Counted from the first letter of the stretch, positions 8,798-55,213 are shown. The stretch: DNA of 64,000 nucleotides from an uncultured Gammaproteobacteria bacterium (GCA_947258655.1 CAMYJD010000018.1:3294-67293), one strand, 5' to 3'. The notes: generated by a model not told the origin, from the sequence alone. Translations and numbers: made by a program.

Positions 8798-9589
8798 ATG
8801 CAAATAACAGTTGATGAATTTAAGAATATTGTTGATCCACTTAGTGACACCCTTCTTGGGATTAGTTTAAGCAATCATGGAGAACCTTTGCTCCACAAAA
8901 ATATTTCCACGCTAATCGAATACGCTCACCAGAAAAATATTGCTGTTAGCTTCCCAACTAATTTGTCGCTAAAGCTAGACAAAGCATCAATAGAGAAACT
9001 TGTTAAATCTGGATTGGACTCCATTGTGGTTTCTTTAGATGGAGCGTCGGAAGAAACATATAGTAAATATAGAGTTGGGGGTGACTTCAAATTAATCCTA
9101 GACAACGTTAAAACAATTTCACGGGAAAAACGACTTCTTGGGCTAAACCGACCTAAACTTATATGGAAATTCGTAGTGTTTGATCATAACAAACATGAAC
9201 TAGATATGGTTGTAAAAAGACACCGTGAGTTAGGTTTTGATACATATAGCTTTGTACAAGATTACCGGTCTAACATTGCCAAAAAGGCAGGACACAAATA
9301 TAAAAAACGTTTTCGGAGAAAGCATCAAGGCTGCTTTTGGTTATGGCATGCGATGATTATCAGCTGGAATGGCGAGGTATTTCCTTGTTGTAAAAGCCAA
9401 TCCTTTGATCTTGGAAATGCCATTAATGATAACAGCGTTGATATTTGGCGATCAGAGGGCTATCGGACTCTGAGGCAGGGATTTTCGAGTGCAGAAGATT
9501 TAACTATGATGAATCCAATATGCAGAAGGTGTATGGGTTATGAATCAGCACCTTCCGTTGATACAAAAAGCCTTACAAAGGCAGTCTAG
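8798..9589 (+). CDS. radical SAM / SPASM(twitch)-domain protein, N-terminus disrupted (see findings)
   Basis: 'GEPLLH' SAM-binding motif and C-terminal Cys cluster 'CCKSQ...ICRRCMGY'. The CX3CX2C motif (CQLKCPGC) is encoded in-frame upstream of the first start codon. An alternative ATG at 8652 lies in another frame. Confidence 0.6.
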   Translation: MQITVDEFKNIVDPLSDTLLGISLSNHGEPLLHKNISTLIEYAHQKNIAVSFPTNLSLKLDKASIEKLVKSGLDSIVVSLDGASEETYSKYRVGGDFKLILDNVKTISREKRLLGLNRPKLIWKFVVFDHNKHELDMVVKRHRELGFDTYSFVQDYRSNIAKKAGHKYKKRFRRKHQGCFWLWHAMIISWNGEVFPCCKSQSFDLGNAINDNSVDIWRSEGYRTLRQGFSSAEDLTMMNPICRRCMGYESAPSVDTKSLTKAV

Positions 9590-41707: not shown

Positions 41708-41812
41708 CTTTACCCTGGATATAAACAGCTACTTATATTAAACTGTTAGATTACTTTGTTTAATGGTGCAATTTGCCCCCCCAGTTTTGTGAAGTATTGA
41801 CTCGTGAGTGAT

Positions 41813-43669
41813 ATGAACCAGGAAAAAATCAACGAAAACGCCCAGGATAAGCAATCCAGGCTCAGGATGCTGATTGCCAAGGGCAAGGAAAAAGGCTTTC
41901 TGACCTACCGGGAGGTCAATGACCACCTGCCCAATGAAATTGTGGATCCCGACCAGATCGAGGAAATCATCAGTGTTATCACTGAAATGGGCATTTCCGT
42001 ACACGAGACTGCCCCCGATGCAGACACGCTGCTGTTGCAGCAGGGCAAGGAAACCGACGAGGATGCGGCCGAAGAAGCCGCCGCAGCACTGGCCTCGGTT
42101 GAAGGCGACTTTGGCCGCACCACCGATCCTGTGCGTATGTATATGCGCGAAATGGGTACCGTCGAACTGTTGACCCGCGAAGGTGAAATCAAGATCGCCA
42201 AGCGTATTGAAGCCGGGCAGAAGCAGGTTCTGGAGGCACTGGCCAGCTACCCGTCAACCGTCGCCCACATCTTCTCTGTCTACGACAACATTATCGAGGA
42301 AGAAGGCCGCATCACCGACCTGATTACCGGCTTTGTCGATCCTGACGAGGATGACAGCTTTCCCCCGCCTGCTGCGCCCCCGGCTGCGGATAGCGATAGC
42401 ACAGAAGTCGCCGCTGACAGCGATGACGATGACGACGCAGAAGTCGTCGATACCGGCCCCGATCCGGAAGAGGTGGCTGCGCACATTGCAGACCTGAGAA
42501 AGCTGTATAACAAATACCAGACCCTGGCAAAGAAACACGGCTCTGCTGACGAACGCGCACTGAAACAGTATGCCAAGGCCATTGAAGTGTTTATGCAGTT
42601 CAAGCTGGCACCGAAAATTATCGAAAAATTGCTGAGTGACCTGCGTAGCATGGTCACACGTATCCGCAGACACGAACGTGTCATCATGGATATCTGCGTA
42701 CAGAAGGCACATATGCCGCGCAAGGAATTCATCACCACGTTCCCGGATAATGAAACCGACATGAACTGGCTCGACCAGCAGATCCAGTCCGGACAGAAAT
42801 ACTCGACGGTACTGGAAGAATATGCCGACGAGATTCGTATTGCGCAGAAGAAACTGCTGAAAATACAGGACGAGACCGGTCTCAGCATCAAGGAGATCAA
42901 GGATATCAATCGTCGCATGTCGATCGGTGAAGCCAAATCACGCCGGGCGAAAAAAGAGATGGTCGAGGCCAACCTGCGCCTGGTGATCTCGATTGCGAAA
43001 AAATATACCAACCGCGGCCTGCAGTTCCTCGACCTGATCCAGGAAGGCAATATCGGCCTGATGAAGGCGGTCGATAAATTCGAATACCGTCGTGGTTACA
43101 AGTTCTCGACCTATGCGACCTGGTGGATTCGCCAGGCCATCACGCGTTCGATCGCGGACCAGGCACGCACGATCCGTATCCCGGTGCATATGATCGAGAC
43201 CATCAACAAGCTCAATCGTATCGCGCGCCAGATGCTGCAGGAAATGGGCCGCGAACCCACACCGGAAGAACTGGCCGAACGCATGGAAATGCCGGAAGAC
43301 AAGATCCGCAAGGTGCTGAAGATCGCCAAGGAGCCGATCTCGATGGAAACCCCGATCGGCGACGACGAAGATTCGCATCTGGGAGACTTTATCGAAGACC
43401 TGAATGTGATGTCGCCATCCGACTCCGCCAACTCGGAAGGCCTGCGCGAAGCCACACATTATGTCCTGACCGGCCTGACCCCGCGTGAAGCCAAGGTCCT
43501 GCGTATGCGTTTCGGCATCGACATGAATACCGACCACACTCTCGAGGAAGTCGGCAAACAGTTCGATGTGACCCGTGAACGTATCCGCCAGATCGAAGCC
43601 AAGGCCCTGCGCAAGCTGCGTCATCCGTCGCGGTCCGAGGCGCTTCGAAGCTTCCTGGATCTGGAATAA
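41813..43669 (+). CDS. rpoD: RNA polymerase sigma-70 RpoD
   Basis: Regions 1.1 to 4.2 are conserved with an acidic spacer. An alternative GTG start lies at 41804. Confidence 0.9.
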
Positions 43670-43901: not shown

Positions 43902-44237
43902 GGGCCTGTAGCTCAGTTGGTTAGAGCAGTGGACTCATCAAAAAGGTGCGTTCATACCGAAAGGTATGAAATGAACGGGATGAATTCAGGGAAACCTTAA
44001 CAGCCACAATTCTGTGGGCTGATGGCAATCCTGAGCCAAGCCGGAAGTACACTTCCGGAAGGTGCAGAGACTACCTGGGGACTGGTGTAAACCGAGCGTC
44101 CTTAATCACAGGCAAGAGCGTCCCGCGTCCTAACAAGCTTAATCGCGTTGAGGATGATGAGATAGTCCGCTCCTGATAGAAATATCCGGAACAAGTGAAT
44201 CCATTGGTCGAAGGTTCAAGTCCTTCCGGGCCCACCA
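43902..44237 (+). tRNA. tRNA(CAU), most similar to tRNA-Ile2 (lysidine), interrupted by a 259-nt group I intron at 43939-44197
   Basis: The exons 43902-43938 and 44198-44237 assemble to GGGCCTGTAGCTCAGTTGGTTAGAGCAGTGGACTCAT|AATCCATTGGTCGAAGGTTCAAGTCCTTCCGGGCCCACCA. The intron lies after a U, ends in G, and has a GTG IGS. Confidence 0.85.
43939..44197 (+). ncRNA. group I (Azoarcus/IC3-like) self-splicing intron within the tRNA(CAU) anticodon loop
   Basis: P2 'ttcatacc-GAAA-ggtatgaa'. 'GGGATGAATTCAGGGAAACCTTAA' and 'GGTGCAGAGACTAC' match Azoarcus pre-tRNA-Ile intron core elements. Confidence 0.8.
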
Positions 44238-44506: not shown

Positions 44507-45133
44507 TTAGCCGATACTCAACAGCATAAAGAGCCCACCTGACAGGATTGCCAGCGAACTTCCCAGCCGGGTCATGGTCGCCTGCAATGCGAAAGCACGG
44601 ATAACTGCGCCGATGATCAAATATTGAATAACAGAGAAGCCGATCAGGTAGGCCAGTAACGGGCCGGTTTCAGCGCCGACGATGGCTTCACCATAGGCAT
44701 AACCGTGGAATACACCGGATACGGCAAATACAGCACCGAGAAATACCGCGCCCAGGCTTTTTCTGGTCACAGCGATGATACCCGCGCCCAGCACTGACAA
44801 CGCGACCAGCGTTTCGGCAAACGGAATATTGCCATCAGCCAGATGAAAGACCGTGCCTCCAAGCGTGGCGGCGACGAACAACAGCGGCACGACATAGCGC
44901 GCCACCCCACTCAGGGTAAAGGCCAGTACTGCCGCTATCAGCAAGAATATAAAATGATCGAGGCCGATGACCGGATGCGCAATCCCGGAGATAAAGCCCT
45001 GGGCAAAGGTCACCGGCGTCTGCCCATCCATTGCATGATGCGCATTGGCCTCTGTTGCCATGAATAACATCATGGCTGCACCCATGCCCATATGACGGAG
45101 ATTAGAAGTATTTATATTAGTTAATGTGCTCAT
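44507..45133 (-). CDS. HupE/UreJ family Ni/Co transporter
   Basis: Signal peptide plus 'HPVIGLDHF' signature. Confidence 0.75.
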   Translation of the reverse strand: MSTLTNINTSNLRHMGMGAAMMLFMATEANAHHAMDGQTPVTFAQGFISGIAHPVIGLDHFIFLLIAAVLAFTLSGVARYVVPLLFVAATLGGTVFHLADGNIPFAETLVALSVLGAGIIAVTRKSLGAVFLGAVFAVSGVFHGYAYGEAIVGAETGPLLAYLIGFSVIQYLIIGAVIRAFALQATMTRLGSSLAILSGGLFMLLSIG

Positions 45134-45197: not shown

Positions 45198-46238
45198 TTA
45201 TGCAGGTACAACAGCATATTGCTGAACCTGCCCTTGTTTATTGCCGGCAATCAGAATCTGATCGTCAGGTGACCATAGCAGGCGCGTAATCTCGGCATCA
45301 CCGGGCCATTTGCATACCGGTTCGAGGCCGTTCTTCAATTGCCAGATCAGGATGTCGCCATCCTGGGCAGCACTGGCCAGGTACGCTCCTTTATGCTGGT
45401 AACTCAATTGCGTTATGCGCTGACGATGACCCTTTAATACTTTCGGCGCTGTACCCGTCGGCCCCTTGCCCTTATTGCTCCACACAACGACTGTATTGCC
45501 GCCAGCGGTTGCAAGGTAATTGCCCTTGCTGTTCCAGCTGATATTGCTGACCTTTTCCGGATAACCTTTCATTTCGGCATGCCCACCTTTGTTCGCTGAC
45601 AGGCGCCAGAACTGCAACATTCTGTCCTGTGAACCGGCGCATATGCACTCACCATCCGGGCTCCATTCCAATGCAATCAGTGAACCCAGACAATGCAGAG
45701 TCTTGTAGGGCTTTGCACCTTGCATACGAAACAGGCGCACACCCTTGTAACAGGCAGTGGCGATTTCACGACTGTTAAATTTCCATTTGATCGCCGTGAT
45801 CGTACTGGGATGATCCTCGCTACGCAGTATTTCACTGCCTTGCTGATCCCAGACGATCAATGTTTTACCGCTGGCCGCCGCTAGCTTGTCAGCATCAGGC
45901 GACCAGGCAATGTGATCGACCCATATATCACTGACAGTACGCGAGCTCTGTAACTCTCCACTCGCAGGGTCCCAGAGCTTTATCAGCCCGTCCTGGCCTG
46001 CGCTTGCAATGACACCGCCATCCGCTCGCCACTCCACTTGTAGTACACCCGACACATGCGCGATGACAGACCAGATCATGACGCCGGCCTGGACATCAAA
46101 CACGCTTATCATGCCAGCCGCATCGGAAACCGCGACCTTGCCAGAATCAGGCGACCAGCTCAGGTCAGTCACGCAGTCGCCAACATTCCACTGCTGAACG
46201 GCATCATTTACTGTCGATTGTTGGACTAGACCAGACAT
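45198..46238 (-). CDS. WD40-repeat (beta-propeller) protein
   Basis: About 7 repeats with a 'xxSPDG...WD' pattern. Confidence 0.6.
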
Positions 46239-47611
46239 GCGTTAAATTCGCGCTCCAGTGACTCCCGATCCAGGTCCCGGCCAATAAATACCAGCTGGTT
46301 TATCCGTGCATCATCGCCCCAGGGGCGATCAGGCTCGCCATCGAACAGCATATGCACACCCTGAAAGATGAAGCGCCTGTCCTCACCCTGCAGGCTGACA
46401 ACGCCCTTCATACGGAATATATCCACGCCCTTGTTGCGTAATAACGTGGTAATCCAGTTTTCAAACAGGCCGGGGTCCAGATCACCACGGGCACTGATAC
46501 CGACTGAGGACACGCTGTCATCATGTTCATGCGGGGCCGCGTACTCCTGCGCTTTTTGCGCTTCATATACTGTCTCACCCGACTCCAGTGTCATCGTGAA
46601 CTCTTCCGGCAAATGCTGGGTAAACAGCGCATAATAGCCGCTGGCGGGTATTTGTATTTCGAAATCATTGTGTGCCTGACCAAGCTGTAACGCATACAGG
46701 TTTTGCGCAGGTATCAGACTACCACCAGGCATTACCGCAGCAGGCTCATCCGAAAACAATAGCATCCCCTGTTGCTTGGCCTTGTTGAAGTCGCTGTCTG
46801 CATCGCAACACAAGGGCAGGAGCACAACATTCATGGATGGATCGGGCCCTTGCAGACAACGCAGCATGTAGGAACCCGCATCCAGATGATACAGGCCACC
46901 CCATTCATACGGGAGTTCTTCCTGGAGAAAATCAGGATCGATATCGAGTTTGCCATCCAGGTCAAACGCATGCACATTTAGCACTTTATCCATATCAACG
47001 GCTGCCTGCGTCGTCCGGTGGATCCTGGCCACGGAATTCATCGAACTGATCTTTTCTTCCAACGCAGACAGCTCCGCGGCAGAAACCAGGTCGGTCTTGT
47101 TGAGCAGGATGACATCGGCAAATGCGATCTGTTCCTGACATTCATTACTGCTATCGATGTGGTTACTGACATGGCCGGCATCCACCAACGTTACGATAGC
47201 ATCCAGGCGCAGCTTGTCCTTGATCTCGTCGTCCATAAAGAATGTCTGCGCCACCGGGCCCGGGTCGGCCAGGCCTGTGGTCTCAATCATGATGTGATCG
47301 AAGGAGTCCCGACGTGCCATCAATCGGCCGAGTATACGAATCAGGTCTCCACGCACCGTGCAACAGATACAGCCGTTGTTCATTTCGAAAATTTCCTCGT
47401 TACTCTGGATCACGAGTTCATTATCGATGCCGATTTCGCCGTATTCGTTTTCTATGACAGCAATGCGCTTGCCATGCTCTTCGGTCAGAATGCGATTTAA
47501 TAGCGTTGTTTTGCCTGAACCGAGGAACCCGGTCAGCACCGTGACGGGCACTCTGTCATCAGCTAAATCAACGGCAACATCTTCTTTGACGGCGCTCATA
47601 CTTGTTACCAT
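46226..47611 (-). CDS. COG0523 (CobW/ZigA-like) metallochaperone GTPase with extended C-terminal domain
   Basis: P-loop 'GFLGSGKTT', CxCC motif 'GCICCTV', CobW C-terminal domain. Confidence 0.75.
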
Positions 47612-48045
47612 GAACGGTATGGCAGGAATTTACCATTCATCGTGACGACGACGCGGTCACCTGCAGGATTCTCTTCCTTGTCTATGGTCATATTGAAGTC
47701 AATTGCACTCATGATACCGTCACCAAACTTCTCATGAATAATTTCCTTGATCGTATCGCCATAGACACCCACGATTTCGTACAGGCGGTAGACGACCGGA
47801 TCGGTGGGCACCAGCTTGTCCCAGTGCTTATGTGGAAATTCCTGCAATGTCGCGCAGACATCGTCGCCCAGACCCAGTGCAGCACAACATTTCTCCGCCT
47901 GCTCCTTGGTCATACTATTCATGCCGAAACAGGCGGAGGTCACCCAGACAACGCCCATACCCATAGCATCAGCAATATCCTCCCAGGTTTTACCCTGTTC
48001 TTTTTTTGCCAGTACGATTGCATCGGTCATTTGCTCTTTGTTCAT
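47605..48045 (-). CDS. cynS: cyanate hydratase (cyanase) CynS
   Basis: C-terminal catalytic domain '[39 protein letters not shown]' closely matches E. coli CynS. Confidence 0.9.
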
Positions 48046-48053
48046 AACTTCTC

Positions 48054-48977
48054 CTACGCTTTATGTTTCTCTAGTTTTATTACCTGCTCATCACCTTCAA
48101 CCATATCGGTGGCAGGATTAACATCGGGTGGATACACCCGCTTCATGGATTCGCGTTGCTCTTGCCCGGCCCTGAGTTCCGGATTCGACAACTCTTTGGA
48201 ACGCTTGACCAGAAACTCCACCAGGTGATTACGAATAGGATAATAATTCGGGTGATGAATAATATCTGTACGTTCGCGGTGCCGTGGGATATCGACAACC
48301 ACGGATTCGGCTATCCGCGCGTATGGGCCATTGGTCATCAGCAGAATACGATCTGCCAGCAGAATGGCCTCATCGACGTCATGGGTAATCATGAATACCG
48401 TCTGATTGGTCTGCTCCCAGATTTTCATCAGCTCTTCCTGGATGATGCCGCGCGTGAGCGCATCCAGGGCTCCAAACGGCTCATCCATCAATAGCAACTT
48501 TGGCTCGATGGCAAAGGCACGCGCAATACTCACGCGCTGACGCATGCCACCCGATAATTGCGATGGCTTGCGATTTTCTGCACCGCCAAGGCCGACCATA
48601 TCGATATACTTCATGCTGTGTTCCAGCACCTGCTCCTTGCTCCATGATGGCCAACGGGCGCGCACCGCAAACGTGATGTTCCTCAGTGTGCTGATCCACG
48701 GTAATAAACTGTAATTCTGGAACACGACTCCGCGATCCAGACTGGGTCCGGCCACCTCGCGGCCATCCATCAGCACCGTGCCACTGCTGGCCTCATCCAG
48801 ACCGGCAAGGACATTGAGTATCGTGGACTTACCACAACCGGAATGCCCGATAATACAAATGAATTCGCCTTTATTGATACCAAAACTGGCGTTCTCAAAT
48901 ACCGTCAGGCTTTCCCCTCCTTTCGGGGCGGGAAAAGTCTTGCTCAAATCCTGGGCGTCTAAAAAGTAGTTTTCCAT
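48054..48977 (-). CDS. ABC transporter ATP-binding protein, nitrate/cyanate (NrtD/CynD) type
   Basis: Walker A 'GHSGCGKST', signature 'LSGGMRQRV', Walker B 'LLLMDEP'. Confidence 0.85.
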
Positions 48978-48984
48978 ATGTCGT

Positions 48985-49815
48985 CTATTCCACGTACTGG
49001 ACCATTTTGGTTGCCTTGGCCAGCAGTAAGTCCAGTACCATACCGACGATACCGATCATCAGGATGGAGAAAATAACTGCTGTCAGATCGAGATTGTTCC
49101 ACTCATTCCAGACGTAATAACCAATACCTGTTCCTCCAACCAGCATTTCTGCCGCAACGATAACAAGCCAGGCAATACCGATAGATATACGCATACCAGT
49201 CAGAATAGTGGGGGCTGCGGCCGGAAGGATCACCATGACCGCCGTGCGTAACTTGCTCAGCTCATGTGTACGCGCAATATTGATCCAGTCTTTCTTGACC
49301 GAACCGACACCAAACGCGGTGTTGATCAACATCGGCCAGATTGAACAGATAAAGATTACAAATACCGAGGATACTTCGGAGTCCTTCAAGATGAACAAGG
49401 CCAACGGCATCCATGCAAGCGGAGATATGGGTTTCAACACCTGGATAAATGGATCCAGCGCCTTATGCATCAACGGCGACATACCGATCATAAAACCGAT
49501 CGGTATGGCAATCAAGGCAGCAAGGAAGTAACCCGACATGACCCGCTTGATAGAATACAGCAGCTGCAGGCCGATGCCCTTGTCATTGGGGCCCTTGTCA
49601 TAGAACGGATCGCTCAATTCCGCTAGCGCGAGCGTGCCGATCTCGGAAGGATTGGGAACCCGGGCATGCGGCGCCGAACCTCCCATCAGCATTTCATACT
49701 CGGTCTTGGCTTCCTTGACTTCCGGTGGCTGATTGGCGATTTCCCAGACACCCAGGGTTACGATCAATATAACCACCGACAACAGTGCCGCCCGCACATT
49801 CAAACTACTTAACAT
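48985..49815 (-). CDS. ABC transporter permease, NrtB/CynB type
   Basis: 6-TM binding-protein-dependent permease with EAA-like loop. Confidence 0.85.
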
Positions 49816-49819
49816 CCTC

Positions 49820-51352
49820 CTATGTCCTCTTGATGGCGAAGCTCTCTATGTATTCCTCCGGCTTGGTATAGTCGAAGGTCTTACCCATGATGGTGTAGTT
49901 CTCGTAGGTCTTGGCTGGCGGTTCATAGCCAAGGTCCGTCATGAGCTTGCCACAATCGGCGGCCAGATAGACCTGCTCCGAGATCTTCTTGTAATCAACA
50001 TCGCCTTTGATATAACCCCAGCGTTTCATTTGCGTCAGTATCCACACGGCCATCGAATGCCAGGGGAATGGATCGAAATCGATACGATCCGGTTCATTAC
50101 GGACATTACCCAGACCATCGGCAAAACGCCCCGTCAGCACCTGCTCGACTACGGGCACGGGCTGATTCAGATAGTTTTTGGGTGAGATGGCCTTGGCGAT
50201 ATCCTTGCGGTTCTCTGCCCGAGATGAGAAATGTGTTGCATCCACAATGGATCTGAACAGCGCACCATAGGAATTCGGGTTCTCGCGAGCGAATTCCGCA
50301 CTCGTGGCAAAGGCGCAGCAGGGATGACCTTGCCAGATCTCCTTCGTCAGCAAGTGAATAAACCCGACCTTCTCCCATACCGCACGTTGATTGAACGGAT
50401 CCGGCGACAGGTAGCCATCGAGGTTTTCCGCACGCAGATTAGCAACCATTTCCGGTGGCGGTACAACGCGGATCTGGATGTCCTTATCCGGATCGAGACC
50501 ATGCTCGGCTACGTAGTAACGCAACAGGAAGTTATGCATCGAGTACTCAAACGGCACGCCAAATTTGAAGCCTTTCCATTTTTTCGGATCACGCTTGTCC
50601 TTGTGCTTGTTATGCAGAACAATGGCCTGGCCATTGATGTTCTCCACCGCCGGCATTATGAAAGGCATGGCCGTGGAACCGGCACCCATGGTCATGGCCA
50701 GCGGCATTGGGGTCAGCATATGGGCCGCGTCGTATTCCTTGTTAATGGATTTATCACGGGAAACCGCCCAACCGGCCGTCTTGATGACGTCCACATCGAG
50801 ACCATATTTGTCGTAGAAGCCCATCGGGTGCGCCATAATAATAGGTGTCGCACAGGTAATGGGTACAAAACCCACTTTAAGCTTCTTCTTCTCAAGCGGC
50901 CCAATCTTGTCCTTGAACGCGGCCTTGGCTGCCTCCATCGGGAATATGCTCGCCAGGATAGACGCTGCCGTACCACCACCTAGCATTTTCATGAAGTTAC
51001 GTCGCGAGGCTTCGTTATGACCGAACACTGCGCGTACCACAGCACTTTCAATGGCGCGATCGATAATGGTCTCGGGGGTTTCGGTAGGATTATCGGGAGA
51101 ACCGTCTGCCCTGAATGCATTCGGATCAGCAGGCGCTGCATCAGCACTGGCATCTGCATCAACATACTGGGAGTCAGTCGCTGTACCTTCATATACAGCC
51201 CGCTCCAGGCGCTCCGTCATTTCTGACTCTGTACACTCATAACGCGACTCGGCTTCTTCACGTTTGAATACACAAATAGGACAGTTACATGCAGGACCAT
51301 GCTGCAAATCACTTTCCGGATTAAATGGATCACCAAGACTCTTATTCGACAT
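49820..51352 (-). CDS. NrtA/CmpA/CynA-like periplasmic substrate-binding protein with a Tat-type 'SRRNFMKMLGG' signal. The ORF carries a ~105-aa Cys-rich upstream extension.
   Basis: Strong NrtA-family similarity after the RR motif. The extension contains 'GPACNCPIC...YEC'. The true start may be a GTG near residue 105. Confidence 0.7.
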   Translation of the reverse strand: MSNKSLGDPFNPESDLQHGPACNCPICVFKREEAESRYECTESEMTERLERAVYEGTATDSQYVDADASADAAPADPNAFRADGSPDNPTETPETIIDRAIESAVVRAVFGHNEASRRNFMKMLGGGTAASILASIFPMEAAKAAFKDKIGPLEKKKLKVGFVPITCATPIIMAHPMGFYDKYGLDVDVIKTAGWAVSRDKSINKEYDAAHMLTPMPLAMTMGAGSTAMPFIMPAVENINGQAIVLHNKHKDKRDPKKWKGFKFGVPFEYSMHNFLLRYYVAEHGLDPDKDIQIRVVPPPEMVANLRAENLDGYLSPDPFNQRAVWEKVGFIHLLTKEIWQGHPCCAFATSAEFARENPNSYGALFRSIVDATHFSSRAENRKDIAKAISPKNYLNQPVPVVEQVLTGRFADGLGNVRNEPDRIDFDPFPWHSMAVWILTQMKRWGYIKGDVDYKKISEQVYLAADCGKLMTDLGYEPPAKTYENYTIMGKTFDYTKPEEYIESFAIKRT

Positions 51353-51566
51353 ACTTTTGTCCCCTCTCCGATTACATTAAAAGCTCGTTACCGCTGCATA
51401 GCGTGCATACATTGCTACGAATTCAATCGTTCACGTTTATGCGCTATTGCAGTGCACTGCGAATACTTTTTGCATTACATGAAGGCGCGCTCACTATATA
51501 CACCTGATCTTTTTACCCCTGATTCAGGCGCCTGGCACACCTCCATTGTTTGCATAAATTTAATTT

Positions 51567-51582
51567 TGCAATATGCATACCA
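51567..51582 (-). promoter_or_regulatory. candidate sigma-54 (-24/-12) promoter for the cyn operon: TGGTAT-N5-TTGCA
   Basis: GG-N10-GC spacing is satisfied on the minus strand. It lies 80-130 bp downstream of three palindromic sites and about 200 bp upstream of the SBP gene. Confidence 0.3.
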
Positions 51583-51651
51583 ATAACGAATTAATGTCAT
51601 AGCTGCCTGAATATTTAATCTTTTTTCTTATTTTCATGATTGCAATAGCGG

Positions 51652-51706
51652 TTACGAATTTTCGTAATTTACGAAATATCGTATTTATAATTACGATATT
51701 TCGTAA
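51652..51706. promoter_or_regulatory. three 16-bp palindromes TTACGAwwTwTCGTAA (candidate enhancer/operator sites)
   Basis: 'ttacgaattttcgtaa', 'ttacgaaatatcgta' and 'ttacgatatttcgtaa' lie in the divergent intergenic region. Confidence 0.5.
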
Positions 51707-51773
51707 GAAGGAATGGATCTTGTATGAGTTATCTGCAGACACATCGACCAGGTAATATTTTCAGGGGAAGATT

Positions 51774-53708
51774 ATGCATTCCAGTTCAAATGCAATCAGA
51801 TCCACGAATCCGGATCAATACAGGCAAGTGTTTGAAAATTCCAGCGATGCCATTCTGTTAATCGATCCTTTTCTGGATAGGGTTGTAAATGCCAATGCAG
51901 CCGCATGCAATATGCTGGGGTATGAAAAGGATGAAATCACCGCACTGTGTGCAAGCGCATTGCATGCCCATGAAATCCCGGCGCTGATCGTGTTTTCCCA
52001 GTCCGTGCTGGACAAGGGCAACGACTGGACAGACGAACTCAGCTGCCGGAAAAAACATGGTGAGCTGCAGCCAGTAGATTACTCGGCATCGACATTCGAA
52101 TCTGACGGTAGGAAACTGATCATCGCAACATTACGCGACCGGGAACGACTGCAAAACCTGAAAAAGGAGTCCAATGCAAATATATATGTACGCCAGGGTA
52201 TATCAGACTGGAAGCACATTGAAAATATTTTTCAACAGATAGAACATGAAAACAAGCTCATCCTGAAAGCCGCCGGTGAAGGTATATACGGTGTTAATGC
52301 CGATGGCAATACGACCTTCGTCAATCCTGCTGCCGAGCGCATGCTGGGCTGGACCGCAGAGGAAATGGTCAGCCATAATATTCATGACATGATCCACTAT
52401 AACAAGGCGGATGGTTCACATTACGATGTGCATGATTGCCCTATTCTCGCAGCCTTCAAGGACGGCGAGGTCCACACGGTGGACAATGAAGTATTCTGGC
52501 GCAAGGATGGCACTCCGATTCCGGTTGAATATACGAGTACACCGATCAAGGATCATGGTAACCTTGTCGGTGCCGTAGTCATCTTCCGTGACATCAGCGA
52601 ACGCAAGGAAGCCGAACGCAATCTCCATGCGGCACTCACTAAGGTCGAAGAACTCAGGCACAAACTGGAAATGGAAAATGCCTACCTGCAGGAAGAGATC
52701 CGCTCGGAACATAATCATCATGAAATAGTCGGCAAAAGCGTTGCCATACAACAAGTTATAAAACAGATCGAACTGGTTGCGCCAACAGATGCAAATGTCC
52801 TGATTAGCGGAGAATCAGGCACGGGCAAAGAGCTCATTGCACGCGCCATCCATCAAAGTAGCACACGTAACGAACGCCCGCTAATCAGGGTCAATTGCGC
52901 TGTTATTCCACACAACCTGTTTGAAAGCGAATTCTTTGGCCATGCAAAAGGCTCCTTTACAGGCGCTGTCAGCGATCGCGCCGGCCGTTTTGAACTGGCG
53001 GACGGCGGTACGCTCTTTCTTGACGAGGTAGGTGAAATTCCGCTGGAGCTACAAAGCAAATTATTACGTGTATTACAGGAAGGGCAATTCGAGCGCATAG
53101 GTGAAAATAAAACGCGTAACGTCAACGTGCGCATTATTGCGGCGACCAATCGCGATCTACGTCAGGAGATCAGCAAGCAGAAATTTCGTGAAGACCTATT
53201 CTTCCGCCTGAATGTATTCCCGATAGAATCAGCACCATTACGCAGACGTGCAGATGACATACCGCTGCTCGCAATACATTTTTTGAAACGTGCCTGCCAT
53301 AAACTCAATAAACCCGATGTGCGTCTCACACAGGGTAATATCGAGAGCCTTGTTGCCTACAAATGGCCGGGTAACATCCGTGAAATGGAAAACGTAATCG
53401 AACGCGCCGTCATTGTCTCGCAAGGCGGCCGCCTCAAACTCGATCTGCCAGACAATGACCCTGATCTCCTGGAATCAACTCCCGAACCATCATACAAGCG
53501 AGATCAGCCGGGGTCAGGAGGTATACTGTCACACCATGAAATTCGTTGCCGCGAACAAGACAATATTATCCATGCATTAAAAGAGAGCGGTGGCAAGATA
53601 TTCGGTGCCGGTGGTGCCGCCGAACTCCTCGACATAAAACCAACTACACTGGCATCAAAAATAAAGCGCCTGGGTATTGATAAATCACAGTATAGAGCAC
53701 CGTCATAA
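51774..53708 (+). CDS. sigma-54-dependent transcriptional activator with two N-terminal PAS domains (no receiver domain) and C-terminal Fis-type HTH
   Basis: AAA+ '[15 protein letters not shown]', 'GSFTGA' sigma-54 contact motif, '[19 protein letters not shown]' HTH. Confidence 0.85.
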
Positions 53709-53813: not shown

Positions 53814-54293
53814 TCAAAGACCAAGGTCCGACAAACCGGGATGATCGTCCGGTCGCCGTCCACAAGACCAGTGATACAGACGTTCGCTCTCCGTAATCGT
53901 CAAATCGTTAATACTTGCTATACGGCGCTGCATCAATCCATTCTCGGCAAATTCCCAGTTCTCGTTCCCGTATGAACGGAACCACTGCCCGGAATCATCA
54001 TGCCATTCGTAGGCGAAGCGTACCGAGATACGGTTTTCATGAAAGGCCCATAACTCCTTGATCAGCCTGTAATCATGCTCCCGATTCCACTTGCGCATTA
54101 AAAACTCAACAATCGCATCACGACCCGTGAAAAATTCGGCACGGTTACGCCATACACTATCCGGGGTGTATGCCAGCGAGACACGCTCCGGCTCCCGCGT
54201 ATTCCAGGCATCTTCCGCCATCCTCACTTTCTGTATTGCCGCACTCATATCAAATGGAGGCAATGGCGGCCTTGCTGATTCAACATTACTCAT
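53814..54293 (-). CDS. DUF1348 (NTF2-like) family protein
   Basis: 'WNTREPERV...[23 protein letters not shown]' is typical of COG3558/DUF1348. Confidence 0.6.
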
Positions 54294-54553: not shown

Positions 54554-55213
54554 CTACGAGGATGTACGGCCCGGTAATAGCGGCTTAAAGAATGCAGCTC
54601 CAAACCTGATTGCGTCATGAAGGTTGAAGATTGAAATACTGTCCGCATCACTTCCCTGCCATCGACGCGCAATTTCACTGTCTTTTAGAAATACCATTTC
54701 CATGCACATGCTATGAGCGGCCACCCCCGCTGGCATTTGCCAACGAATACCGACGCAAACATCCTTCGGCTTCACGTCCGCAAGCTCAAATCCACGCATA
54801 TGGATTTCAACCGCTTCGGCCGTCACATGACAACGTGACATAATAGAAACCTCGGTATCGAATAGCGTTGCTACCGAGAGCGCATCCAGTGCACACATGG
54901 CATAGATGGTATTTGCTCCGACCCTCAGCTTATGCGCTGTCTGTTCGACAGTCACCGGATAGGCGCCGACAACAGCTGTACCCTCGGCATTCAGCACGAC
55001 CAGGTCATTTTCACCCAGAATGAGCAATGCCTCGACCACGCCATCAGCGCCGACGCGTTCTGCAATTTCAGTATTCGACAGTGGTTCACCACGCATGATC
55101 AATGACTCAAGGATAGCCTGATGCAGGTGTTTTAATAGCGGCGGTAACTGCTCCTGTCTTGCCTTCAGTGGCAGCAGGGAATTCAATCGATCGACGGCAG
55201 CTTGAATATGCAT
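54554..55213 (-). CDS. MerB-like organomercurial (alkylmercury) lyase family protein
   Basis: 'YAMCALDAL' (Cys/Asp catalytic pair) and a later Cys-containing segment resemble MerB. N-terminal HTH-like region. Confidence 0.45.
   Translation of the reverse strand: MHIQAAVDRLNSLLPLKARQEQLPPLLKHLHQAILESLIMRGEPLSNTEIAERVGADGVVEALLILGENDLVVLNAEGTAVVGAYPVTVEQTAHKLRVGANTIYAMCALDALSVATLFDTEVSIMSRCHVTAEAVEIHMRGFELADVKPKDVCVGIRWQMPAGVAAHSMCMEMVFLKDSEIARRWQGSDADSISIFNLHDAIRFGAAFFKPLLPGRTSS

Follow-up and report, generated by a model that had tools for sequence, protein, structure and literature searches.

What kind of cyanate-utilization system is encoded in a 64,000-nucleotide stretch of DNA from an uncultured Gammaproteobacteria bacterium (GCA_947258655.1, CAMYJD010000018.1:3294-67293; the whole stretch is hereafter called the window), and how might its expression be controlled? 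A first-pass annotation made from the sequence alone had described a cyanobacterial-type cynABDS operon together with a divergent sigma-54 activator, a triple palindrome, and a candidate -24/-12 promoter. Judged from its genes, their orthologs, and the conserved sites between them, the locus is very probably a cyanate-assimilation module of the proteobacterial type, in which cynF diverges from cynABDS, and operates under a CynF/sigma-54 mechanism.

Gene content of the cyn locus

The genes were called from an open reading frame (ORF) map, Pfam, and NCBIfam, all of which were in agreement, and the core of the locus comprises the following features.

51774..53708, plus strand: cynF, sigma-54 enhancer-binding activator (Pfam, NCBIfam)
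49820..51352, minus strand: cynA, NrtA-like (NMT1_2) periplasmic binding protein (PF13379, 7.3e-90)
48985..49815, minus strand: cynB, ATP-binding cassette (ABC) transporter permease (TIGR01183, 228.7 bits, cut-off 209)
48054..48977, minus strand: cynD, ABC transporter ATPase (TIGR01184, 309.3 bits, cut-off 291.8)
47605..48045, minus strand: cynS, cyanase (cyanate hydratase/lyase; TIGR00673, 175.1 bits, cut-off 113.3; PF02560, PF21291)

The minus-strand order of NrtA-like substrate-binding protein, permease, ATPase, and cyanase that the first-pass annotation had read is that of cynA-B-D-S, with the ORFs and the Pfam/NCBIfam matches in accord. These four genes are separated by gaps of 4-8 bp, with cynABD immediately ahead of cynS in the same orientation, and the spacer between cynF and cynA is 421 bp. 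The layout was also rightly called non-enterobacterial: no cynT, cynX, or CynR domain was found in the genes scanned (36-64 kb). The label "cyanobacterial-type cynABDS" holds for the gene order but not for the regulation, given the divergent sigma-54 activator and the -24/-12 promoter, and the locus is better described as being of the proteobacterial cynFABDS type.

A predicted sigma-54 promoter and three palindromes in the cynF-cynA spacer

The spacer contains a predicted promoter and three putative upstream activating sequence (UAS) sites, for which the center positions are counted from the predicted transcription start.

51567..51582, minus strand: predicted sigma-54 promoter of cynA, TGGTAT-N5-TTGCA (TGGTATGCATATTGCA), with GG at -24/-25 and GC at -12/-13
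51652..51667: UAS site 1, promoter-proximal, TTACGAATTTTCGTAA, center about -104, 78 bp from TGG
51669..51684: UAS site 2, middle, TTACGAAATATCGTAT, center about -121
51691..51706: UAS site 3, promoter-distal, TTACGATATTTCGTAA, center about -143, 68 bp upstream of the cynF ATG

The -24/-12 element is present on the minus strand at 51582-51567, as had been claimed, and from it we infer a cynA transcription start near 51556. Taken by itself, a loose -24/-12 match carries little weight, with 16 of them in the window versus 6.6 expected; the element is convincing because it is conserved in orthologous loci. The triple 16-bp palindrome was likewise recovered: the window contains just three matches to TTACGA-N4-TCGTAA (one mismatch or less), all at 51652-51706, versus 0.09 expected by chance, and none of 100 shuffles gave three. 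The spacings are 17 bp between sites 1 and 2 and 22 bp between sites 2 and 3. The distance of the palindromes from the promoter, previously given as 80-130 bp upstream, had to be corrected to 70-124 bp as measured from the TGG of the element. With respect to cynF, the palindromes are 68-122 bp upstream of the ATG, a position from which they probably autoregulate this gene as well.

A plus-strand sequence at 51531 (cTGGCACacc...TTGCA) was considered as a second sigma-54 promoter and rejected, its spacing being two bases off and the sequence not being conserved as a promoter in the closest related locus (L001, below).

Conservation of the spacer architecture among cynF loci

We aligned the PAS region of CynF with 13 homologs and scanned it against 185,579 species genomes, one per bacterial species. 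The scan yielded 80 loci, all from Alpha- and Gammaproteobacteria, including Bradyrhizobium, Methylobacterium, Ferrovibrio, Thiohalophilus, Thiodiazotropha, Halochromatium, and Ectopseudomonas. Of the 80, 78 have a divergent cynA adjoining cynF, with a full cynABDS set on every contig that is long enough; the exceptions are two Methylobacterium loci (L037 and L077) with only cynS beside cynF. The cynB gene is 68-88% identical to cynB of related loci. The closest relative is an Acidiferrobacterales metagenome-assembled genome (L001/L002; 77% identity for CynF, 91% for CynS), where L001 has the same eight-gene layout in a different neighborhood and keeps all three palindromes and TGGTAC-N5-TTGC while the surrounding spacer bases diverge.

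Comparison of the intergenic region in relatives, which had been set beforehand as a refutation test, found the palindromes and the -24/-12 element to be conserved upstream of orthologous cyn operons. A strong TGG(C/T)A(C/T)-N5-(T/C)TGC element occupies the equivalent position on the cynA strand in 76 of 79 spacers, with T-G-G and G-C invariant, and at least three palindromes are found upstream of it in 72 of these 76 loci. Among the 72, the proximal-middle spacing is 17 bp in 58 and the middle-distal spacing is 21-23 bp in 63. The distance from the center of the proximal site to TGG is either 63-65 bp (44 loci) or 74-79 bp (19 loci), two modes that are one helical turn apart; the window (17, 22, and 78 bp) follows this architecture in its second mode. 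Palindrome matches with one mismatch or less numbered 60 in 26.8 kb of cynF-cynA spacers versus 0 in 1.38 Mb of flanking DNA, and the site consensus across loci is (T/C)(T/C)ACGA-(A)(A/T)(T)(T/C)-TCGT(A)(A/G).

Five loci (L003, L020, L023, L066, and L078) have a near-consensus sigma-54 promoter at a distance of just 41-68 nt from the cynA ATG, on the strand of cynF. This promoter (TGGCACG-N4-CTGCW, at 9566-9581 on the plus strand in L003) is directed at cynF, head-on to the cynA promoter, and has no counterpart in the window. The homologs in L085 (GCA_975901915.1, contig CDLKGN010000153.1) are labeled in the source as Kaarinaea lacus, a cyanobacterium (Nostocales). Given its sigma-54 activator and proteobacterial-type cyn operon, this contig is probably from a co-cultured bacterium.

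Domain structure of CynF

The divergent activator had been described as lacking a receiver and having two PAS domains, and a Pfam scan agrees, showing both PAS domains and Sigma54_activat but no receiver domain. CynF consists of PAS1 (about residues 15-115), PAS2 (about 161-276), the AAA+ sigma-54 interaction domain (318-485), an AAA lid, and a Fis-type helix-turn-helix (HTH) at the C-terminus. The Pfam matches are PF00158 (2.7e-74), PAS_9, PAS, PAS_8, and AAA_lid_14, with HTH_8 matched at 23.2 bits (cut-off 22). The best NCBIfam model for the AAA+/HTH part is NorR, at 377 bits and thus under its cut-off of 476. Over residues 19-641, the protein is 59% identical to those of the Ectopseudomonas cynF loci (L042, L043, and L053). 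Per-position conservation of the HTH recognition helix, PTTLASRIKRLGI, is roughly 70-90% or more among 117 homologs, which fits an operator that hardly changes.

Within PAS2, residues H204, H208, D213, G214, Y217, C222-P223, and H234 are invariant among 14 diverse homologs (window 52383-52475, plus strand), and this set of His and Cys residues would suit a metal or haem ligand site. A PDB sequence search returned weak matches to PA0861, DosP, and FixL, and the AlphaFold model (predicted local distance difference test score, 82) matches tandem-PAS proteins generally (DosP, LOV-PAS, FixL, NifL, and MmoS).

Proposed mechanism and comparison with characterized systems

In the mechanism that we propose, CynF dimers would occupy the three palindromes through the Fis-type HTH, and an AAA+ oligomer would assemble on these sites. 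When cyanate is present, the oligomer would contact sigma-54 RNA polymerase at TGGTAT-N5-TTGCA and spend ATP to open the cynA promoter, giving one mRNA with a leader of ~200 nt that would encode the CynABD importer, CynS, a COG0523 GTPase, a WD40 protein, and HupE. CynF is the presumed protein bound at the palindromes, and cyanate its presumed signal by analogy with Pseudomonas.

The nearest mechanistic analog is NorR with its three sites. Like CynF, NorR is a receiver-less sigma-54 activator that is divergent from its target (norVW); the spacer between the two contains three inverted-repeat sites in tandem, all of which are needed to assemble the active oligomer. The two differ in their sensors (a GAF domain with non-haem iron in NorR versus two PAS domains in CynF), signals (nitric oxide versus, presumably, cyanate), and site sequences (GT-N7-AC for NorR, unlike ACGA-N4-TCGT for CynF).

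Enterobacterial cynTSX shares the CynS enzyme and cyanate induction with the window; it encodes the CynT carbonic anhydrase and CynX, a major facilitator superfamily protein, has no ABC transporter, and is controlled by the LysR-type CynR at a sigma-70 promoter. Cyanobacterial cyn operons are under NtcA-type nitrogen control, and to our knowledge cyanobacteria have no sigma-54. The cynABDS operon of Synechococcus/Prochlorococcus (e.g., Espie 2007) has the same gene order of NrtA-like protein, permease, ATPase, and cyanase but, unlike the window, no divergent PAS-AAA+ activator and no TTACGA-N4-TCGTAA sites.

The closest characterized system is that of Pseudomonas pseudoalcaligenes (oleovorans) CECT5344, of whose divergent cynF and cynABDS cluster Luque-Almagro reportedly gave an earlier account in 2008. 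As described by Saez in 2019 (PMC6627978), the divergent genes cynF and cynA of this strain are 268 bp apart, and CynF is a sigma-54-dependent regulator of the Fis type. Cyanate, but not nitrate, induces cynABD, which shares a transcript with cynS; a cynF mutant has no cyanase, and the authors noted the same cynF arrangement in alpha-, beta-, and gammaproteobacteria. Cyanate induction, ammonium repression, and cynF dependence are known only for this strain (PMC6627978). Elsewhere, an rpoN mutant of Bradyrhizobium shows lowered cynS expression (PMC13207237), and a survey with position-specific scoring matrices found sigma-54 regulation of cyanate lyase genes (COG1513) to be enriched in Alpha- and Gammaproteobacteria (PMC12316311).

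The window shares with CECT5344 the divergent Fis-HTH sigma-54 cynF, the cynA-B-D-S order, an RpoN site upstream of cynA, and the N-terminus of CynA as printed for that strain (SLxDPFxPxSxLxH...CxCxxC). The RpoN site in Fig. S1 of PMC6627978, CTGGTACAGCTCCTGCA (TGGTACAGCTCCTGCA), is found as an identical sequence in the Ectopseudomonas loci L042, L043, and L053, and TGGTACAGCTCCTGCA corresponds to TGGTATGCATATTGCA of the window, whose proteins are 59-68% identical to those of the Ectopseudomonas loci sharing the CECT5344 promoter. Differences include the spacer (421 bp in the window versus 268 bp), the leader (about 200 versus about 85 nt), the host (an Acidiferrobacterales-like gammaproteobacterium versus Pseudomonas), and, in the window only, COG0523-WD40-HupE genes after cynS and a longer, four-cysteine N-terminal extension of CynA. 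The printed CECT5344 spacer holds TGACGATATCTCGTTT, TGACGAAATCTCGTGA, and TAACGAGATTT(T)CGTAT, which make three ACGA-N4-TCGT palindromes; they are not annotated, and the supplement of PMC6627978 uses neither the word "palindrome" nor the term "inverted repeat".

We conclude that the core finding is a correct rediscovery of a published system and adds little to it, divergent cynF and cynABDS with a sigma-54 promoter having been described. What is new is the predicted CynF operator, a consensus of three sites with set spacings and helical phasing that is unmarked in the Pseudomonas papers; it could guide the design of cyanate biosensors and the prediction of regulons across Alpha- and Gammaproteobacteria.

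The COG0523-WD40-HupE genes and the N-terminal extension of CynA

Three genes follow cynS on the same strand.

46226..47611, minus strand: COG0523 (G3E) metallochaperone GTPase, 461 aa, with a CxCC motif (GCICCT; PF02492, PF07683)
45198..46238, minus strand: WD40 beta-propeller protein, no signal peptide (PF00400, 1.4e-37)
44507..45133, minus strand: HupE/UreJ-family Ni/Co permease, last gene of the predicted operon (PF04955, 2.6e-29)

Translational coupling joins this tail to cynS: the start codon of the COG0523 gene overlaps the cynS stop (7 nt), and the COG0523 and WD40 genes share 13 nt at their junction, just as in L082 and L083. The suggestion that these genes may be co-transcribed with the cyn operon is well supported by the overlapping starts and stops, by the same layout in L001, and by the location of the pair between cynD and cynS elsewhere; from this arrangement we infer their co-transcription. 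Ten loci carry the module, in the following layouts.

Window and L001: cynABDS-COG0523-WD40-HupE
L003 and L086: cynABD-COG0523-WD40-cynS-HupE
L078 and L087: cynABD-COG0523-WD40-HupE (no cynS match in L078; the L087 contig ends inside hupE)
L020 and L023: cynABD-COG0523-WD40-cynS, then a CbiM-like gene
L085: cynABDS-COG0523-WD40-CbtB-CbtA-DUF1348
L088: cynABDS-COG0523-WD40-NicO

The transporter slot in these ten loci is thus filled by HupE, CbiM-like, CbtAB, or NicO, four unrelated Ni/Co families, which argues that Ni or Co uptake was selected together with the operon. In distant phyla (Acidobacteriota, Chloroflexota, and others), COG0523 proteins of the same ~450-aa subfamily invariably come with a WD40 gene, and outside cyn loci the pair adjoins Fur-family regulators, CbiMNQO, ZnuA, and TonB receptors. 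By gene context, not phylogeny, we assign it to COG0523 subfamily 5 (Haas et al. 2009, PMC2770081). As in that subfamily, the window pair is a ~450-aa CxCC GTPase with an overlapping WD40 gene and adjoining metal transporters; whereas subfamily 5 pairs reside in Zur/Fur-controlled metal clusters, that of the window is embedded in a sigma-54/CynF-controlled cyanate operon with Ni/Co-type transporters. The idea that the WD40 protein is an enzyme resembling thiocyanate dehydrogenase was rejected, given its canonical cytoplasmic WD40 repeats and its constant pairing with COG0523 across unrelated phyla.

The CynA protein of the window carries an N-terminal extension of about 115 residues (with H18, C22, C24, C27, and C40; SLGDPFxPxSDLxH...CxCPxC...YEC) ahead of a signal like those for twin-arginine translocation (Tat); CynA residues 1-150 correspond to window positions 50903-51352 on the minus strand. 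The Tat-like signal (SRRNFMK, a hydrophobic stretch, and AAKA, residues 116-134) is internal and points to a binding protein anchored in the membrane, with a domain that stays in the cytoplasm and possibly binds metal; the TAT_signal score of 20 bits against a cut-off of 22.7 is borderline. All of the CynA proteins have an extension ahead of the Tat-like signal with the motif H-x3-C-x-C-x2-C (C-x-C-x2-H in Alphaproteobacteria), and the extensions are shorter in the Pseudomonas and alphaproteobacterial proteins. The ten module loci possess an insertion of ~45 residues, CxCPxCVF...Y(E/Q)C(T/S)E...TE(R/K)LExAV(F/Y)EG, that adds the fourth cysteine and a conserved helix, and none of nine gammaproteobacterial loci without the module has it. 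In neighbor-joining trees of mature CynA and CynB, which are crude and not bootstrapped, the module loci are not monophyletic, with the module-less L034 and L026 placed beside the window clade; the equivalent CynF tree is less clear and puts L026 outside the window group. On the basis of this non-monophyly, the module and the CynA insertion appear to have changed together more than once.

It is possible, if somewhat doubtful, that COG0523-WD40-HupE is an independent metal-starvation unit that happens to lie beside cynS, with its own control and no role in cyanate use. Such a unit would match the Fur/Zur-type metal clusters (with CbiMNQO, ZnuA, and TonB receptors) that house the pair outside cyn loci, only 5 of the 80 species loci carry the module, and we know of no metal requirement of cyanase. 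This account is opposed by the overlap of the COG0523 start with the cynS stop, which leaves no room for a promoter, by the placement of the pair between cynD and cynS in L003, L020, L023, and L086, by the four unrelated Ni/Co transporter families in the same slot, and by the covariation of the module with the CynA insertion across non-monophyletic lineages. An Rfam search of 43-55 kb found no cobalamin riboswitch; Zur/Fur-type boxes were not searched for.

A module of COG0523, WD40, and Ni/Co-transporter genes in this operon is unexpected, because cyanase is not known to need a metal. We offer, as a tentative and rather unlikely proposal, that cyanate assimilation in Gammaproteobacteria of the sulfur-oxidizer type includes a Ni/Co-dependent step, for which the operon would bring both an importer and the COG0523-WD40 insertion pair, with the N-terminal domain of CynA as the candidate client. 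That CynA domain being a client of the COG0523-WD40 chaperone is in itself possible, not likely, and alternative clients would be PAS2 of CynF (H204, H208, C222, and H234) or some metalloenzyme inhibited by cyanate. A functional link, if there is one, would point to a client for the widespread, uncharacterized COG0523-WD40 pair, which is related to the eukaryotic ZNG1/CBWD group, and to a hidden metal requirement in cyanate use by sulfur-oxidizing bacteria and symbionts such as Thiodiazotropha. A literature search found no paper linking COG0523-HupE to cyanase.

Alternative readings of the core locus

The ABC transporter could be a nitrate/nitrite importer, making the operon a general nitrogen-oxyanion uptake unit that includes a cyanase. 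CynB and CynD do exceed the cut-offs of the NCBIfam "nitrate ABC transporter" models while no cynA-specific model was matched, and Pseudomonas cynBD mutants still import cyanate via nitrate/nitrite transporters, which indicates overlapping specificity (PMC6627978). We nevertheless regard this reading as unlikely: CynA, CynB, and CynD are 62-68% identical to those of the Ectopseudomonas loci with the published Pseudomonas promoter, the Pseudomonas cynABD genes are co-transcribed with cynS and induced by cyanate rather than nitrate (PMC6627978), and the cluster has no nitrate or nitrite reductase genes.

The palindromes, for their part, might be operators at which CynF or another factor represses cynF and not an enhancer driving cynA. 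Their closeness to the cynF ATG is in keeping with this, as is the Pseudomonas figure, where the proposed cynF sigma-70 promoter is on the cynA side of the sites, so that cynF would be transcribed through the bound protein. The sites keep a conserved, helically phased distance (63-65 or 74-79 bp) to the sigma-54 promoter, however, whereas their position relative to the cynF start ranges widely, between -17 and about -280, and three tandem dimer sites are the layout expected for assembly of an AAA+ oligomer. A purely repressive function is therefore quite unlikely, although the repressor and enhancer roles are compatible.

Transcription of cynA from a sigma-70 promoter, with the TGG-N10-GC match being fortuitous, is highly improbable: the loose pattern is frequent in the window and the long leader could hide another promoter, but a sigma-70 scan finds no promoter-like site in the cynF-cynA spacer, T-G-G and G-C are invariant in 76 orthologous regions amid diverging surroundings, and the divergent gene encodes an obligate sigma-54 activator.

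The predicted leader of the cynA transcript has features of its own.

51353..51556, minus strand: cynA leader, about 204 nt, with a Shine-Dalgarno sequence GGAGAGGGG ahead of the ATG at 51352

Its predicted fold of -62.4 kcal/mol is better than that of shuffled controls (z = -3.0), and at 51440-51456 (minus strand), about 100 nt downstream of the predicted start, it contains the NtrC-like palindrome TGCACTGCAATAGCGCA. Eleven other gammaproteobacterial cyn loci possess TGCAC(C)-N5-7-(G)GTGCA sites at +49 to +100, and 32 NtrC-like sites were counted across all spacers versus 12.3 expected. The downstream position is unusual for an enhancer; the leader palindrome may be the route by which ammonium control enters the system. 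Rfam searches of 43-55 kb with permissive E-values gave no leader or spacer family, bar a chance microRNA-like match on the palindromes themselves.

Several observations weigh against the CynF/sigma-54 mechanism as we have drawn it. The long leader, with an NtrC-like palindrome downstream of the promoter, is unaccounted for by the model. No rpoN gene or RpoN-box peptide occurs in the 64-kb window, and sigma-54 in this genome is for that reason assumed. The -24 element of the window has T where 89% of orthologs have C, and the sigma-54 contact loop of CynF is GSFTGA, a variant present in 11 of 124 stored sequences, a set that includes four proteins unrelated to CynF and in which 104 have GAFTGA. 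No IHF consensus (WATCAANNNNTTR, one mismatch or less) was found between enhancer and promoter in the window. The sequence and fold searches gave generic tandem-PAS matches only, which indicate no particular cofactor. Lastly, the literature searched contained no description of a CynF binding site and no report, in any organism, of CynF binding the palindromes.

Flanking features

One further gene lies close to cynF.

53814..54293, minus strand: DUF1348 (SnoaL-like) gene, convergent with cynF (PF07080, 2e-67)

A member of the DUF1348 family (65-75% identical) adjoins cynS in L008, L026 (on the opposite strand), L040, L048, L075, and L079, and another ends the operon in L085, making it a recurrent, uncharacterized cyn neighbor; the DUF1348 gene of the window may be associated with the cyn cluster.

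Between rpoD (41804-43669) and hupE, where the cyn cluster has its left edge, a tRNA-Met(cat) gene (43902-44237, plus strand) has its anticodon loop (CAU) split by a group I intron, as detected with the intron option of ARAGORN; the intron matches Rfam RF00028 with 84.4 bits at 43927-44189. To the right of the cluster, in a stretch of lower GC content (0.43), is a MerB-like (alkylmercury lyase family) ORF at 54554-55213 on the minus strand, which scores 84 bits, well under the NCBIfam cut-off of 193.

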